Source: Bacillota bacterium
GTDB taxonomy: Bacteria; Bacillota; Dethiobacteria; DTU022
Length of the DNA: 63,216 bases
Assembly: GCA_012799185.1 (NCBI GenBank)
Contig: JAAZLS010000009.1
Coordinates: forward strand, 1 to 63,216
Direction: 5' to 3'
Part shown: positions 26,713 through 63,215 of the stretch, one piece after another
Layout of the letters: each line of letters starts with the position of its first letter
Numbering within the stretch: position 1 is the stretch's first letter
Made by a program: the position numbers and the translations under genes
The notes under the pieces: generated by a model
Databases searched by the model: none
What the model saw: only the letters and a program-made list of their open reading frames with translations
What the model was told of the DNA's origin: nothing

Positions 26713-26970
26713 AAAAAATAAAGCCTTTCATCAAAGAGACGAAAGGCTGTTTTCGCGGTACCACTCTTTTTGTAATTAAAACATTAATTACCCGCTTGTT
26801 TGTGATAACGGTTCAATACCGGCCGCGCTTAATCTGGTTATTACCATTTCGGGCGGCAGCTCCCGGAGGAGTTTGCTTAAGCCCCCCTGCCGCCTTGCAC
26901 CAGCCGGCGGCTCGCTGTAAAGGCAGCTTAAGCTACTGGTTCCGATCCTGACCTGTTCTAAAGATAAATG
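26713..26970 (-). promoter_or_regulatory. T-box riboswitch leader of leuA
   Basis: The minus-strand RNA contains the T-box core AGAGUGGUACCGCG (26754-26766). It is followed by the terminator AGCCUUUC-gucucuuugau-GAAAGGCU-UUAUUUUUU (26713-26748). The upstream Stem-I-like region has an AGUA motif, a distal loop GGCUGGUGCAA and CUU/CUC (Leu) triplets. Confidence 0.8.
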
Positions 26971-34983: not shown

Positions 34984-36216
34984 TTGCATATGAAGATAAA
35001 GCGTACCCTGATAATAATATTTTCCCTGGTGGTACTGGCCCTTTTAGCCGGCTATCTCCTGGATCTACCCTGGTTTTCCGCTCTTTGGGCATCTACTCCC
35101 GGGCCTCCCCCTCCCATCGAAGAGCCGGAGCCCCCGCCGGAACCGACCCCCGATATACGCACCGCCCGGTTGGTCGCGGCCGGCGATATAATAGTGCATT
35201 TAACCCAGGTCGAACAGGCCTTTGCCGGTGGTAGTTATGATTTTACCCCCAGTTTTAGCTTTATAACTCCTAGCCTGCAATCGGCCGATTTAACAGTAGG
35301 CAATTTTGAGACCGTCCTAGCCGGTCCCGAGCGGGGTTATAGCGGTTATCCCGCCTTTAATACCCCGGATGAACTGGCGCAAAATCTAAAACAGGCCGGG
35401 TTTGATCTCCTCTCTACCGCCAATAACCATAGCCTGGATATGGGCATTAATGGCCTATTTAGAACGATTGACTGTTTGGAAGAGGCCGGCCTGGTCACCT
35501 TCGGCACCTACCGCCAGCCGGAGGAGCGCACGCCCCTGCTGGTGGAGGTAAACGGTATTAATCTATTTTTTACCGCCTATACGGAGTCGACCAACGGTAT
35601 TCCGGTGCCCGACGGGTACGATTACGCCATTAATTATATCCCAAATTTTAATATCCTGGATCCGATTATCAATGAGATAACCGTCGCCCGGGAAAAGGGG
35701 GCCGATCTGGTGATTGTTTACATGCACTGGGGCCACGAATACCACGTGCAACCTACCGATTTTCACCGGGACCTGGCCCGGCAGCTGGCTATAGCCGGGG
35801 CCGATATGATTATTGGTGGCCATCCACATGTAATGCAACCCCTGGAGTGGATCACCGTGGAGACGGATGACGGACCACCGCGGCAAGTGCTGGTCGCCTA
35901 CTCCTTGGGCAATTTTATCTCCAACCAGTTCCACTGGGTCCCTTACATTCCAACCCCCAAGGTCCAGTACGGCCTGCTGCTGGATGTGGAGATTTCCAAG
36001 GATATGGAGAGCGGCCTAACCCGGCTTAGCCGGGCCGACTATGATATCACCTGGGTTCACCGCAACTGGCGCCACCGGATACTGCCTCTCTCAGAGGTCC
36101 TTTCCTCCACTGCGCTGGACCAGTATAATCTTACCGAAGAGGAGCTGAGGGCCATCAAGGCCGAATACGACTGCCTTCGCGAGGAGATATTAGAGAAGTA
36201 TAATTTTAGCGATTAA
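34984..36216 (+). CDS. CapA-family (PGA_cap) metallophosphoesterase-like protein
   Basis: A signal anchor, then VAAGDIIVH, VGNFETVL, STANNHSLDMG, YMHWGHEY and GGHPHV, which are CapA/PgsA motifs. Confidence 0.8.
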   Translation: MHMKIKRTLIIIFSLVVLALLAGYLLDLPWFSALWASTPGPPPPIEEPEPPPEPTPDIRTARLVAAGDIIVHLTQVEQAFAGGSYDFTPSFSFITPSLQSADLTVGNFETVLAGPERGYSGYPAFNTPDELAQNLKQAGFDLLSTANNHSLDMGINGLFRTIDCLEEAGLVTFGTYRQPEERTPLLVEVNGINLFFTAYTESTNGIPVPDGYDYAINYIPNFNILDPIINEITVAREKGADLVIVYMHWGHEYHVQPTDFHRDLARQLAIAGADMIIGGHPHVMQPLEWITVETDDGPPRQVLVAYSLGNFISNQFHWVPYIPTPKVQYGLLLDVEISKDMESGLTRLSRADYDITWVHRNWRHRILPLSEVLSSTALDQYNLTEEELRAIKAEYDCLREEILEKYNFSD

Positions 36217-36245
36217 CCGCAGTCGGAATTAATGAACCGGAGAAG

Positions 36246-37403
36246 ATGATATTGAAAATAGCATTTTTTACCGATAGTTTTCGACCCTATACCAGTGGCG
36301 TCGTTCGTTCAATTGAACTGTTCGCCCGGGAGTTTACAGCCCGGGGCCACGAGGTCTTTATATTCGGTCCCGATTACCCCCTTCTTCACTGTCCTCCCGA
36401 AAAAAAAGTATTCCGCTTTATCTCTATTCCTGCCCCCACCATGCCCGACTTTGCTTTACCGATCCCTATTTCAATTAATTTAGGACCCACTATTCGCCGG
36501 ATTGGACTGGATATTATTCATGTCCATTCACCTTTTCTATTGGGCCGGCTGGGTGCTCGGGCTGCCCGGCGCTATAAACTGCCCCTGGTATTTACCTTCC
36601 ACACCCTCTACGATCAATATGTCCATTACCTTCCCCTCGGTGAGGAACCGGCCCGGCGCCTGGTTCGTTCAATCAGCCGGGATTTTTGCAACAAATACTG
36701 CCGCCTGGTGATTTCCCCCTCCCGAACGGTTGCAAACCACCTTCGTACCTTGGGCGTCAAGGTACCGGTACGGACCATTCCGACCGGAGTAGATCTTAAT
36801 GAATTTAGCAATGCTGATCCCCGGTGGTTAAAAGAGAGCTACAACCTGGATAATAGAAGTAGAGTCCTATTATTTGTAGGCCGCCTGGGAAAAGAGAAAA
36901 ACGTGCCTTTTTTAATCAAGGCCTTTGCCCAAGCCGCCCGCACGGTTCCTAATATTCACCTGGTCCTGGTCGGCAAAGGGCCGTTGAAGAGCCAGCTCCG
37001 CCAGCTGGTCCGGGAATTGGAGCTTGACGGCAAGGTGACTTTCACCGGAATGCTCAACAGGAAAAAGGTAGCCCACTGCTATGCGGGAGCGGATCTATTT
37101 GTTTTTCCATCGGTTACCGAGACCCAGGGGCTGGTTATCGGCGAGGCAAAAACCCGGGGATTGCCAACCATAGCGGTAAAAGCTTTCGGCGCAGCCGAGA
37201 TGGTGAAACACATGGAGGATGGGCTATTAACCGGTCCCTCGATTAACTCCTTCGCCGAAGCGATAATTCAATTGTTGCAAGAAGATCATCTCTATCAAAA
37301 GATGCGTAAAAAGGCCCGCGAAAACGCCACCCTTTACTCCTCCTCCCACTTTGCTGGGCAGATGTTGGCCACCTACAAGGAACTCATCGCGAACCCGGTT
37401 TAA
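36246..37403 (+). CDS. GT4-family glycosyltransferase
   Basis: An N-terminal Glyco_trans_4 segment (FFTDSFRPYTSGV) and a C-terminal GT1 motif (FVFPSVTETQGLVIGEA, the E-x7-E region). Confidence 0.8.
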   Translation: MILKIAFFTDSFRPYTSGVVRSIELFAREFTARGHEVFIFGPDYPLLHCPPEKKVFRFISIPAPTMPDFALPIPISINLGPTIRRIGLDIIHVHSPFLLGRLGARAARRYKLPLVFTFHTLYDQYVHYLPLGEEPARRLVRSISRDFCNKYCRLVISPSRTVANHLRTLGVKVPVRTIPTGVDLNEFSNADPRWLKESYNLDNRSRVLLFVGRLGKEKNVPFLIKAFAQAARTVPNIHLVLVGKGPLKSQLRQLVRELELDGKVTFTGMLNRKKVAHCYAGADLFVFPSVTETQGLVIGEAKTRGLPTIAVKAFGAAEMVKHMEDGLLTGPSINSFAEAIIQLLQEDHLYQKMRKKARENATLYSSSHFAGQMLATYKELIANPV

Positions 37404-37416
37404 TCTACTCCCAGGG

Positions 37417-38853
37417 TTAATTTAACCAAAGCTGTTTCGTCCGTTCGGTAATCGGCCGGTGATAGAACAAAAGTATGGCCGGAATCAACAGAAACAGTAG
37501 ACGCCCGAAGATCGTGTTGGCAAATAAGATCAGTGCGCCCAGCCAGCGGTTCCTACCGCTATAAATACCCCGGATTGCCTCCCTGTCCACGGTTTTAATC
37601 ATGGCCCCGGTTTCGGACAGGGGGGGGTAATTGTCGATATCGACCCGGTATAACCCCTTCTCTATACCGATCACCCGCTCCACATAGGTAACATAGTGTT
37701 CCTCGAATAAAATGATCTGGCCAACTTCAACCTTGTCGTCGGGTTCAATCTGTTTAAAATAAACCAGATCATTGAGCATGATTTCCGGCTCCATGGTAGA
37801 AGACTTAAATATATAGGGAATTGTTCCCCGGAAGGAGACCTCCCTTCCCAGGGTAGAGGCATTAATCGCTAGAATTACCAGATTAAAAGAGAGGGCGGCC
37901 AGGATGAAGAGAATCAAGAACGAAACAGAGGCAACATCGAATATTTTGCGACGACGGGCCTGTCTCTTTCCATTGCCCAAGGCTCTCCCCCGCCCAGTTT
38001 TGGGGTCGATCAATACCACCCGCTCCCCGGGTGTTAGTATCCCATCATAACCGGTATCGGGTAGATAGTAGTACTTGGATATATTGCGGGCCATGACTAT
38101 ACAGACCAGGATAAATACAGAGACAATTGCCGCTGCTGCCGGTAGAAACGGTGAGCGACCGATATCAAATAGGTTGTAGAGATTTTGCATTGCGACCCGG
38201 TTTGACAGGATCGAATAATAGCCCAATTTTATTTTTAGTATTATTAATAGGATAAAGGAGAAGGCAATAAAATAGCGGGCACCGGTTATGGACTTAACAA
38301 AAGTTGAGAGGGTCATGGAGATAATAATCATAATAATGAGATCAATCAACCCGGCTAGGTACAGGGAGGGAAAATAGGCCGGGATCAGGCTATATTTTAA
38401 GAAATATGTCATAAAGGCCGTGAAGAAAAAACCTATGGTGTAAACAAATATTGTTGATAGCAGCAAGGCGGTCAACTTGGAAAAGATCATGGTTAGCGGA
38501 TTATAGCCCATCTTAACCAAGAGGTACCAGGAGTTTTGCTTTATCTCATAAAAAAAGAGGGAGTCATAGTTCAAAATATAGTAAAAGATATTTAAAACCA
38601 GGGCCACGTGGATATAGATATAGAGGGTTGAAAAATAGCTAGGCTGCATAATTTGCGGGATCGCCTCCAGGAGCACACTCTCCCTCAGCGGTTGAGCAGC
38701 AAAGAAAACTGCGAAGGAGATAAGACCTAAAAAGAGAGCAAAGACCACCCTTTGCTTGCTACTGACTATATTTTCCGTATAGCCCTGGCGCAGCTCTTTA
38801 CTAAAATAGCTGTGCTTATAAATCATATTGCCGGTCAATCTCCTCGTAGGCAT
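37417..38853 (-). CDS. polytopic membrane protein fused to a SipW-like (S26B) signal-peptidase domain with substituted catalytic residues
   Basis: About 6 TM segments span residues 35-265, followed by a basic linker, a TM anchor, an S26-like domain (KSSTMEPEIMLNDLVYF...VTYVERVIGI...YRVDIDNYP) and a C-terminal TM. Compared with the neighbouring SipW (SGSMEP / THRII / KGDN), the nucleophile Ser is Thr (ACC, 37795-37797) and the His is Glu (GAG, 37678-37680). An alternative start is the ATG at 38826. Confidence 0.6.
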   Translation of the reverse strand: MPTRRLTGNMIYKHSYFSKELRQGYTENIVSSKQRVVFALFLGLISFAVFFAAQPLRESVLLEAIPQIMQPSYFSTLYIYIHVALVLNIFYYILNYDSLFFYEIKQNSWYLLVKMGYNPLTMIFSKLTALLLSTIFVYTIGFFFTAFMTYFLKYSLIPAYFPSLYLAGLIDLIIMIIISMTLSTFVKSITGARYFIAFSFILLIILKIKLGYYSILSNRVAMQNLYNLFDIGRSPFLPAAAAIVSVFILVCIVMARNISKYYYLPDTGYDGILTPGERVVLIDPKTGRGRALGNGKRQARRRKIFDVASVSFLILFILAALSFNLVILAINASTLGREVSFRGTIPYIFKSSTMEPEIMLNDLVYFKQIEPDDKVEVGQIILFEEHYVTYVERVIGIEKGLYRVDIDNYPPLSETGAMIKTVDREAIRGIYSGRNRWLGALILFANTIFGRLLFLLIPAILLFYHRPITERTKQLWLN

Positions 38854-40478: not shown

Positions 40479-40498
40479 GCCCACCCTTTAGGGTGGGC
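40479..40498 (-). terminator. hairpin downstream of the TasA-like genes (partial terminator/processing site)
   Basis: The minus-strand RNA reads GCCCACCC-uaaa-GGGUGGGC followed by UACCUCUUUU. The 8-bp GC stem is strong, but the U-tract is interrupted. Confidence 0.5.
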
Positions 40499-42062: not shown

Positions 42063-42100
42063 TTATTTTTATAAAAAAATTGCCACCTAAAACATGTAGT
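42063..42100 (-). terminator. imperfect hairpin plus U7 overlapping the 3' end of the aptamer candidate (possible expression platform)
   Basis: The minus-strand RNA reads GCCAGUUGACACUACAUGUUUUAGGUGGC-AA-UUUUUUU. The outer GCCA/UGGC and inner CUA/UAG pairs form, but the interior is poorly paired. The 5' arm is shared with the aptamer 3' end. Confidence 0.35.
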
Positions 42101-42172
42101 GTCAACTGGCTATCTCAATTCCCTCCAGGGAACCGGACCCTTTAGTTTTGCGCCGTGGACTCGCGCCCACGT
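42089..42172 (-). promoter_or_regulatory. candidate GEMM-I-like (cyclic-dinucleotide) riboswitch aptamer in leader of the TasA-like operon
   Basis: The minus-strand RNA reads GUGAAAGGCAAC-[GUGGGC-GCGA-GUCCAC]-GGCGCAAAAC-UAAAGGGUCCGGUUCCCUGGAGGGAAUUGAGAUAGCCAGUUGACAC. This echoes the GEMM-I layout GGCAAAC-[hairpin with GNRA loop]-GGACGCAAAGCC...UAGCCAGCUGCC. It deviates at hallmark positions: one A fewer in GGCAAAC, and GGCGC instead of GGACGC. Confidence 0.4.
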
Positions 42173-42272
42173 TGCCTTTCACTCGAGGAATTTTATTTTA
42201 TTGATACAATAGTATTGCATAAAATTCCTACCGTGTCAACGCTAGAATTAATTATTGGAAGATTCGCCCGGC

Positions 42273-63139: not shown

Positions 63140-63215
63140 GCCGACGTAGCTCAATTGGCAGAGCAGCTGATTTGTAATCAGCAGGTTACCAGTTCAAGTC
63201 TGGTCGTCGGCTCCA
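63140..63215 (+). tRNA. tRNA-Thr (anticodon UGU), encoded CCA
   Basis: A hand-folded cloverleaf. Acceptor GCCGACG/CGTCGGC, D arm GCTC-AATTGGCA-GAGC, anticodon arm GCTGA-TTTGTAA-TCAGC (UGU), variable loop AGGTT, T arm ACCAG-TTCAAGT-CTGGT, discriminator T and CCA. Confidence 0.9.

Follow-up and report, generated by a model that had tools for sequence, protein, structure and literature searches.

Degenerate peptidase domains are found in some bacterial membrane systems. In HlyB, a C39-like peptidase domain which has lost the nucleophile is carried by an ATP-binding cassette (ABC) membrane domain, and is thought to bind the substrate without cutting it. NosDFY is an ABC system which acts outside the membrane, and is not involved in transport. 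In the tapA-sipW-tasA locus of Bacillus subtilis and the sipW-bsaA locus of Clostridium perfringens, a dedicated SipW signal peptidase is encoded together with secreted subunits carrying a SipW-cognate signal peptide. Among Gram-positive bacteria, nucleation, anchoring and control of TasA-like donor-strand fibres, which do not rely on a chaperone-usher system, are credited to TapA in Bacillus, and no such factor is known in archaea (PMC9245690). The SipA (LepA) protein of Streptococcus pyogenes, in which the Ser/Lys dyad is changed to Asp/Gly, keeps the peptide-binding cleft and is devoid of peptidase activity, and is indispensable to the polymerisation of pili (PMC4049620). The locus described here resides in a stretch of 63,216 nucleotides, hereafter called the window, which corresponds to contig JAAZLS010000009.1 of a Bacillota bacterium (Dethiobacteria, DTU022; assembly GCA_012799185.1). 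One gene of the window encodes a protein in which a six-helix, permease-like membrane domain is fused to a complete SipW-like signal peptidase module, and both residues of the catalytic dyad of the module are replaced. The fusion gene is the last of an operon which also encodes a degenerate ATPase homologue, an intact SipW and two secreted proteins. The coordinates of all features are given in Table 1.

The fusion gene is a single uninterrupted frame of 478 codons on the minus strand (37417..38853), in which the sole stop codon is terminal and no frameshift is found. Translation most likely starts at M10 (ATG at 38824-38826), as homologues all begin with MIY..., a GAGGAG sequence is found upstream of the ATG, and the 11-nt overlap between the fusion gene and the preceding gene is identical in Desulfosporosinus orientis. 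Residues are numbered throughout from M1 of the full open reading frame (ORF), at 38853, and not from M10. The AlphaFold2 model of the protein (mean predicted local distance difference test score, pLDDT, 78; predicted template modelling score, pTM, 0.70) features six long helices at residues 30-258, with pLDDT mostly in the 80-97 range, a helix at residues 295-334, a beta domain at residues 340-435, and terminal helices at residues 436-477. The predicted topology is self-consistent: the six helices finish in the cytoplasm, the seventh transmembrane (TM) helix, TM7, runs outward, the beta domain lies outside, and TM8 runs back inward. At the C-terminus, RWLGALILFANT aligns with the LG....F.QT motif found on the C-terminal helix of canonical SipWs. 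Since a TM helix is found both before and after the beta domain, and the LG....F.QT counterpart is in place, the whole SipW module is present, inclusive of both membrane helices.

Four independent lines agree that the C-terminal part is a SipW module, with Thr and Glu at the dyad positions. Residues 312-466 match the NCBIfam SipW model at E = 2.9e-8, with a score of 33.5 bits which is far under the curated cut-off of 190; the score with the archaeal-type signal peptidase I model is 23.7, under the cut-off of 51.85, and Pfam Peptidase_S26 gave no match to the fusion protein. BLASTP against the SipW encoded in the window (E = 5e-5) paired SSTMEP with SGSMEP, VERV with THRI, and DIDN with KGDN. 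The same pairing (Thr with Ser, Glu with His, Asp-Asn with Asp-Asn) was obtained with hhalign, when 59 C-terminal domains of the family were aligned to 65 canonical Ser/His SipWs (probability 99.3%, E = 2.6e-20). The modelled C-terminal domain, searched with Foldseek against the PDB, matches human SEC11C and SEC11A, Staphylococcus aureus SpsB, Escherichia coli LepB, LexA, and S. pyogenes SipA. The window SipW aligns to SEC11A and SEC11C with the SGSMEP, HR and KGDN motifs intact, so that the residue correspondence extends to the solved eukaryotic enzyme.

The S26 fold is therefore present in the module, and both the nucleophile Ser (SGSMxP) and the general-base His (xHR[IV]) are replaced, by T353 and E392, respectively. 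The Asp of box E (GDN) is kept, as D407-N408 is aligned to the GDN box. The initial annotation of this DNA, made from the sequence alone, had placed a transporter-like membrane domain and a whole SipW module in one protein, had read Thr for Ser and Glu for His at the dyad positions in an alignment made by eye, and had noted that the Asp-Asn box and the two flanking TM helices are kept. All these assignments agree with the alignments, which include canonical SipWs and leave no Ser or His at the dyad positions, with the AlphaFold2 model, and with the survey of the family reported below.

The whole architecture of the fusion is found in >200 database proteins, each of about 465 aa. In a scan of one genome per species, 58 loci were found, all in Clostridia; the carriers are Desulfosporosinus, Candidatus Dichloromethanomonas, Peptococcaceae, Lutispora, Anaerobacterium, Sporobacter, Christensenellaceae, Mageeibacillus, Oscillospiraceae, and unclassified Clostridia. 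When 1.84 billion cluster representatives were searched exhaustively with a profile, 679 matches were obtained at E <= 1e-3, and 84 at E <= 1e-30. It is extremely improbable that two genes have been merged by a sequencing or assembly error, or that the ORF is a decaying pseudogene, because the same ORF of about 465 aa recurs in the >200 database proteins and in the genomes of 58 species, with both halves strongly conserved. A gene split by an unnoticed stop or frameshift, the possible flaw pointed out in the initial annotation, is likewise not seen, and the fusion is a single gene in >50 species. The mean pairwise identity of orthologues is 54% in the signal-peptidase-like domain and 69% in TM8, the most conserved segment of the protein, versus 50% in the TM domain and 28% in the linker. 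To judge from these values, the signal-peptidase-like domain is under purifying selection, and is not decaying.

The residues at the two dyad positions have been analyzed in 121 close homologues, in the 58 species loci, and in 55 full-length representatives of the family. Position 353 is occupied by Thr in 119 and Ser in 2 of the close homologues, and by Thr in 57 and Ser in 1 of the species loci. In the representatives, Thr is found 43 times and Ser 5 times, and K, V, R, D, E, H and L once each. Position 392 features Glu in 119 and Gln in 2 of the close homologues, and mostly Glu in the species loci, with Glu in the core clade and Ala, Ser or Arg in divergent loci. In the representatives, the position is occupied by E (18), R (7), A (6), K (6), S (5), Q (4), M (3), H (1), and others. 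Conservation of the Thr/Glu pair, which the initial annotation had proposed to survey, is thus found for Thr in 57 of 58 loci, and lost in distant members; Glu varies family-wide. The box F.S.TMEP around position 353 is strongly conserved, D405 is invariant, and D407 is found in 113 of the 121 homologues. In the wider family, only N361, D362, F366, Y409, R436 and G439 are conserved at >80% in the SipW-like domain, and no plausible nucleophile/base pair is found among them.

The variability of the base position, together with the replacement of Thr by unrelated residues in the most divergent members, is what would be expected of a pseudoenzyme rather than of an alternative Thr/Glu dyad, and the family pattern points to a pseudoenzyme as the simplest reading. 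The module would accordingly be catalytically silent, and unable to cleave signal peptides. Under the pseudoenzyme reading, Ser or Thr, which still occupies the former nucleophile position in 87% of the representatives, would be favored there as a binding or structural hydroxyl.

Alternatively, the fusion may be an active enzyme with a non-canonical site, in which the nucleophile is Thr353, or Ser in a few members, and the base is Glu392 or another residue, possibly provided by the substrate or by a partner. Such an enzyme would cleave or transpeptidate the subunits, as a second processing step, or for covalent cross-linking or anchoring. Thr or Ser at the nucleophile position in 48 of the 55 representatives and in all 58 species loci, the conserved F.S.TMEP box, and the retention of D405 and D407 are in favor of this; Ser/Glu/Asp catalysis is known in other peptidase clans, as in the sedolisins. 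The hypothesis is nevertheless unlikely. A Ser to Thr swap usually cripples serine hydrolases. The base position is free to vary (E, R, A, K, S, Q, M), and conservation is not seen for any other His or Lys. The His upstream (H386), which the initial annotation had regarded as a possible compensating residue, is found in just 2 of the 121 homologues, and thus fails in this role. In 7 of the 55 representatives the nucleophile position is held by residues other than Thr and Ser, distant relatives have no motif at all, and an intact SipW is always encoded alongside. In a more specific version of the hypothesis, Thr353 is a real nucleophile in the core clade, and the S26B-derived domain a slow or single-turnover acyl-transferase, which links or anchors subunits covalently. 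The version is quite improbable, and is kept alive by the hydroxyl conserved in 87% of the representatives; if true, a signal-peptidase fold, carried by an ABC-like scaffold independent of nucleotides, would do sortase-like work. A Thr/Lys dyad formed with K420 was also considered, and rejected, as K420 is conserved in the core clade alone, and in <50% of the wider family.

Rare natural variants would be informative on whether the hydroxyl matters. The member at locus L004 (5956-7440) carries Ser at the nucleophile position (FKSSSMEP) and keeps Glu. In the representative P0154, Thr is found along with His at the base position (..EYVHQI..). P0127 is a third variant of this kind.

In more distant relatives, the permease domain is followed by a long linker, basic or rich in proline, then by a TM helix and a minimal beta domain devoid of any signal-peptidase motif; in some, the domain is gone. 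Very long basic or proline/glutamine-rich linkers, with the outer domain minimal or missing, are found in P0233, P0222, P0216, P0208 and P0204. The state of the outer domain in these relatives argues that the signal-peptidase-derived domain erodes progressively across the superfamily.

The N-terminal membrane domain is recognised by structure only. In Foldseek searches of the PDB, the six helices match NosY of the NosDFY complex (7o0z, TM-score on target 0.57), as well as the membrane domains of ABCG2 and ABCG5/G8; the matches have a probability of about 1.0, yet E values of just about 3e-3. No Pfam model, ABC2_membrane included, and no NCBIfam model recognises the domain, and the whole-protein profile, compared to PDB sequences, retrieved uL24/KOW matches alone, all insignificant (E > 1). 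The modelled fold is that of ABC-2 (type V) exporters. The permease domain features the conserved motif F.EI..N.WY.L..MGY, which would sit at the place taken by the coupling helices in type V transporters.

The gene which overlaps the fusion gene encodes a homologue of ABC nucleotide-binding domains (NBDs). A profile of 25 orthologues of this partner matches solved NBDs, the best being 1vpl (3.5e-15), followed by ABCA3/A4, ABCG1, BceA and LolD. In NCBIfam, weak matches (about 1e-7) to the ABC ATPase families YbbA and GldA were found. Pfam ABC_tran gave no match to the partner; a normal NBD encoded in the same window matches the model at 6.6e-29. The partner motifs were mapped onto solved NBDs, and onto this canonical NBD. 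Walker A, GxxGxGK[ST] in the canonical form, is changed to G.xG[RT]S.[FY]E[IV][KR]L, with the Lys paired with Ile. The Walker B Asp is replaced by an invariant Asn (N182), the catalytic Glu by Leu, Phe or Val (Leu in the window), the signature LSGGQ by LT[KR]EE, and the His of the H-loop by Gln or Lys (Gln in the window). The replacements are consistent in all 48 orthologues checked. As every ATPase motif is replaced, the putative transporter lacks an ATPase. On these grounds the partner is best described as a pseudo-ATPase, and ATP hydrolysis is not expected.

The exporter-like fold, and the conserved motif at the presumed site of the coupling helices, would also suit a working exporter of polysaccharides, lipids or peptides accompanying the fibre, energised by another ATPase or by nucleotide binding, in which the signal-peptidase-like domain is vestigial or serves as a structural cap. 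Genes for a GT4 glycosyltransferase and for a PGA_cap protein adjoin the operon on the opposite strand. We regard a working exporter as very doubtful. In 48 out of 48 orthologues, the NBD to which the fusion is translationally coupled is dead; the conservation of the signal-peptidase-like domain and of TM8 equals or exceeds that of the TM domain, so that neither is vestigial; the GT4 and PGA_cap genes do not belong to the conserved cassette. The latter two genes converge on the end of the operon, and 13 nt separate the stop codons. The PGA_cap product is CapA-like (capsule synthesis; E = 7e-73).

Gene order is the same in about 50 loci. A protein of about 320 aa comes first, followed by a mini-ORF in most loci, a subunit of about 176 aa, SipW, the dead NBD, and the fusion as last gene. 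The window SipW matches the NCBIfam SipW model at 1.1e-28, and scores above the cut-off of the archaeal-type signal peptidase I model. In all 46 cassette SipWs compared, SGSM.P, THR[IV] and GDN are kept, and the protein ends about 26 aa after GDN. All 46 thus lack the C-terminal TM helix and the LG....F.QT motif, both of which are found in canonical SipWs and in the pseudo-SipW domain of the fusion.

The two secreted proteins of the window have SipW-class signal peptides. Orthologues of the larger one, of about 320 aa, head the cassette in most loci, and the C-terminal CBM2 module (residues 191-291 of the 312-aa protein of the window, E = 2.9e-12) is conserved among them, which suggests an affinity of the fibre, or of its tip, for cellulose, chitin, or a matrix polysaccharide. 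Orthologues of the 188-aa protein are named in UniRef as 'SipW-cognate class signal peptide' or 'Camelysin metallo-endopeptidase' proteins. Matches to Pfam Peptidase_M73 (PF12389, TasA/camelysin) were found in 5 of 24 of these orthologues, the best, at 2.6e-6, being above the gathering score, and cover the N-terminal half only. The 188-aa protein is modelled as a beta-sandwich, in which residues 25-39, just after the signal peptide, are disordered; in fold searches of the PDB it gave weak matches to chaperone-usher pilins, including FimG with the donor strand, and not to TasA. Its profile, compared to PDB sequences, gave one insignificant match to an S-layer protein. The label TasA-like is thus only partly supported, by the class of the signal peptide, the linkage to SipW, and the partial M73 matches. 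The subunits would likely form a donor-strand fibre. Neither sortase nor LPXTG pilins were found in the cassette, and a TapA homologue is not present.

Between the two subunit genes, mini-ORFs of 43-108 aa encode a SipW-class signal peptide, followed only by a short conserved peptide (...GTLS.YTSV.SFG..I.PD). Examples are found at L001 (4640-4771), L003 (4581-4772), L013 (3608-3742), and about 30 other loci; a mini-ORF was sought in the window, and none was found. The products may be strand-only caps or primers for the fibre.

A c-di-GMP-I riboswitch (cyclic di-GMP; RF01051) precedes the operon, with 44 nt between its end and the first gene. In 11 related loci tested, the element was detected upstream of the subunit genes in three (L017, with two copies, L031 and L050), and not detected in eight. 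In D. orientis a GGDEF gene is adjacent. A terminator-like hairpin of 8 bp, 7 of which are GC, separates the subunit genes from sipW, and may be an internal attenuator setting the ratio of subunits to machinery; its location would fit high expression of the subunits and low expression of the machinery. Riboswitch, GGDEF neighbour and hairpin layout together point to the cassette as specifying a surface or biofilm structure induced by c-di-GMP.

We consider it probable that the fusion is a catalytically silent membrane platform for the assembly or anchoring of a surface fibre. The true SipW would remove the signal peptides of the subunits. The fusion and the pseudo-NBD would form an ABC-like complex capable of neither ATP hydrolysis nor signal-peptide cleavage, which would display two SipW-like domains at the outer face of the membrane. 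The pseudo-SipW domain is predicted to keep the peptide-binding groove of the fold, in which the substrate is bound as an extended strand. It may thus hold the cleavage-site region of the subunits, or their new N-terminal strand, and/or dock the SipW devoid of its TM helix. In this manner the complex would organise how a TasA-like surface fibre is processed, primed or anchored.

The pseudo-SipW domain may instead act on the enzyme, as a membrane anchor or regulator of the cassette SipW, with the active and inactive paralogues forming a heterodimer in which cleavage is positioned or gated. The loss of the C-terminal TM helix and of LG....F.QT in 46 of 46 cassette SipWs, both retained by the pseudo-domain, fits such an arrangement, as do the high conservation of TM8 and the constant co-occurrence of the two genes. 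Pseudoenzymes regulating active paralogues are a common pattern. The permease domain and the dead NBD are left unexplained, however, and we hold a dedicated regulator of SipW for possible rather than likely; it overlaps with the platform, and does not exclude it.

The fusion differs from each of the known systems in some respects. With SipW and Sec11 enzymes (S26B) it shares the fold, the TM anchor, boxes B to E of the beta domain, and the C-terminal TM helix with LG....F..T, and it resides in one operon with a real SipW and with proteins bearing SipW-class signal peptides; it differs from them in having Thr for Ser, a Glu (variable in the family) for His, and a six-helix permease-like domain in front. 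The platform role would be comparable to that of S. pyogenes SipA (PDB 4n31), the closest precedent, or of the C39-like domain of HlyB. SipA likewise has a signal-peptidase fold with both dyad residues replaced, and is encoded in a surface-fibre cluster beside real processing and assembly enzymes. In contrast to the fusion, SipA is a stand-alone, single-TM protein of the P-type Ser/Lys S26A lineage, and serves sortase-assembled pili; the fusion belongs to the SipW Ser/His lineage, carries an ABC-like membrane domain, and is associated with sortase-independent subunits featuring SipW-class signal peptides. The closest sequence relatives of the fusion module are SipW-type (Ser/His) enzymes, and on the basis of this difference in lineage, SipA and the fusion module are independent origins of the same idea.

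Similarly to HlyB, the fusion combines an ABC-like membrane domain with a peptidase domain devoid of the nucleophile, and similarly to NosDFY, whose NosY subunit is the best match of the TM domain, an NBD gene is adjacent, and overlaps. Unlike in both systems, the NBD of the cassette has no Walker A, Walker B, signature or H-loop, and an ATP-driven cycle is not expected; unlike in HlyB, the attached domain is of the S26 and not of the C39 type, and is predicted to face the outer side of the membrane and not the cytoplasm. The tapA-sipW-tasA and sipW-bsaA loci resemble the cassette in the dedicated SipW and in the subunits with SipW-cognate signal peptides, some of which match the TasA/camelysin Pfam model among cassette orthologues; a biofilm or surface structure would be in keeping with control by c-di-GMP. 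The cassette differs from tapA-sipW-tasA in having no TapA, and in featuring the pseudo-ABC/pseudo-SipW pair, the mini-ORF in most loci, and CBM2 on one subunit.

Several data weigh against a silent platform. The almost constant Ser or Thr at position 353 fits a functional hydroxyl, either catalytic or binding. The dead NBD could still bind a nucleotide or another ligand, and drive a conformational change. The subunits of the window have no Pfam M73 match, and TasA was retrieved neither by profile comparison with the sequences of solved structures nor by fold search. For all family members, gene context and analogy are the basis of the proposed role in fibre assembly.

Neither pseudo-signal-peptidases of pilus loci nor SipW/TasA operons are new, and the sequences of the family are public under a generic peptidase name; the NCBI annotation, 'S26 family signal peptidase', probably misstates the activity. 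In a literature search of incomplete coverage, no description was found of the fusion, of the dead ATPase partner, or of the cassette. The initial annotation had called such a fusion unusual; in genomes it is not rare, being found in at least 58 species. The cassette, widespread in anaerobic Clostridia, is a candidate fibre machine made wholly of disabled enzymes (ATPase, permease and signal peptidase), with the active paralogue adjacent, and a candidate for the factor, so far missing, which assembles or anchors TasA-like fibres in Clostridia. If so, the fusion would be the second, independent conversion of a signal peptidase into a fibre-assembly factor after streptococcal SipA, and a clear example of pseudoenzymes serving as a membrane scaffold.

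Table 1. Coordinates of the fusion gene, of its domains and key codons, and of other features of the window.
Feature	Coordinates	Strand	Basis or remarks
Fusion protein, 469 aa from M10	37417..38826 (ORF back to 38853)	(-)	
ABC-2 / type V exporter-like six-helix membrane domain, residues 30-258	38080..38766	(-)	AlphaFold2 and Foldseek
Cytoplasmic linker, residues 259-294, basic, poorly conserved	37972..38079	(-)	low confidence, pLDDT 50-59; 28% mean pairwise identity
TM7, N-terminal anchor of the SipW-like module, residues 295-334	37852..37971	(-)	AlphaFold2 and hhalign
Extracytoplasmic SipW-like beta domain, residues 335-436 (T353, E392, D407-N408)	37546..37851	(-)	sequence and structure comparisons
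Codon of T353 (ACC)	37795-37797	(-)	
Codon of H386 (CAC)	37696-37698	(-)	
Codon of E392 (GAG)	37678-37680	(-)	
Codons of D407-N408	37630-37635	(-)	
TM8 (RWLGALILFANT...), C-terminal helix of SipW-type enzymes	37420..37545	(-)	AlphaFold2 helices 436-445 and 448-477; 69% identity
Degenerate ABC nucleotide-binding-domain homologue, 332 aa	38816..39814	(-)	overlaps the fusion gene by 11 nt
Intact SipW-type (S26B) signal peptidase I, 177 aa	39839..40372	(-)	SGSMEP, THRI and KGDN present; no C-terminal TM helix
Terminator-like hairpin, GCCCACCC-TAAA-GGGTGGGC with T-rich tail	40479..40498	(-)	pattern match only
Secreted fibre-subunit-like protein, 188 aa	40552..41118	(-)	SipW-class signal peptide (..AGTLSAYS..)
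Fibre-subunit or adhesin-like secreted protein, 312 aa	41115..42053	(-)	SipW-class signal peptide (..AGTLASYS..), beta-rich domain, C-terminal CBM2
c-di-GMP-I riboswitch aptamer (RF01051)	42098..42186	(-)	46.4 bits versus gathering score of 35, full-length
Promoter-like site (TTGACA, 17 nt, TG-AATACT)	42211..42239	(-)	consensus match only, 10/12 positions, extended -10; upstream of the riboswitch
PGA_cap and GT4 glycosyltransferase genes	34984-37403	(+)	
T-box leader	26732-26958	(-)	124 bits
tRNA gene	63140-63212	(+)	

Two RNA features listed in Table 1, the T-box leader and the tRNA gene, are unrelated to the fusion. The G+C content falls from about 0.54-0.58 to about 0.43-0.51 in the part of the window from about 34000 to about 58000, which holds the operon, and this low-G+C part may have been acquired horizontally.

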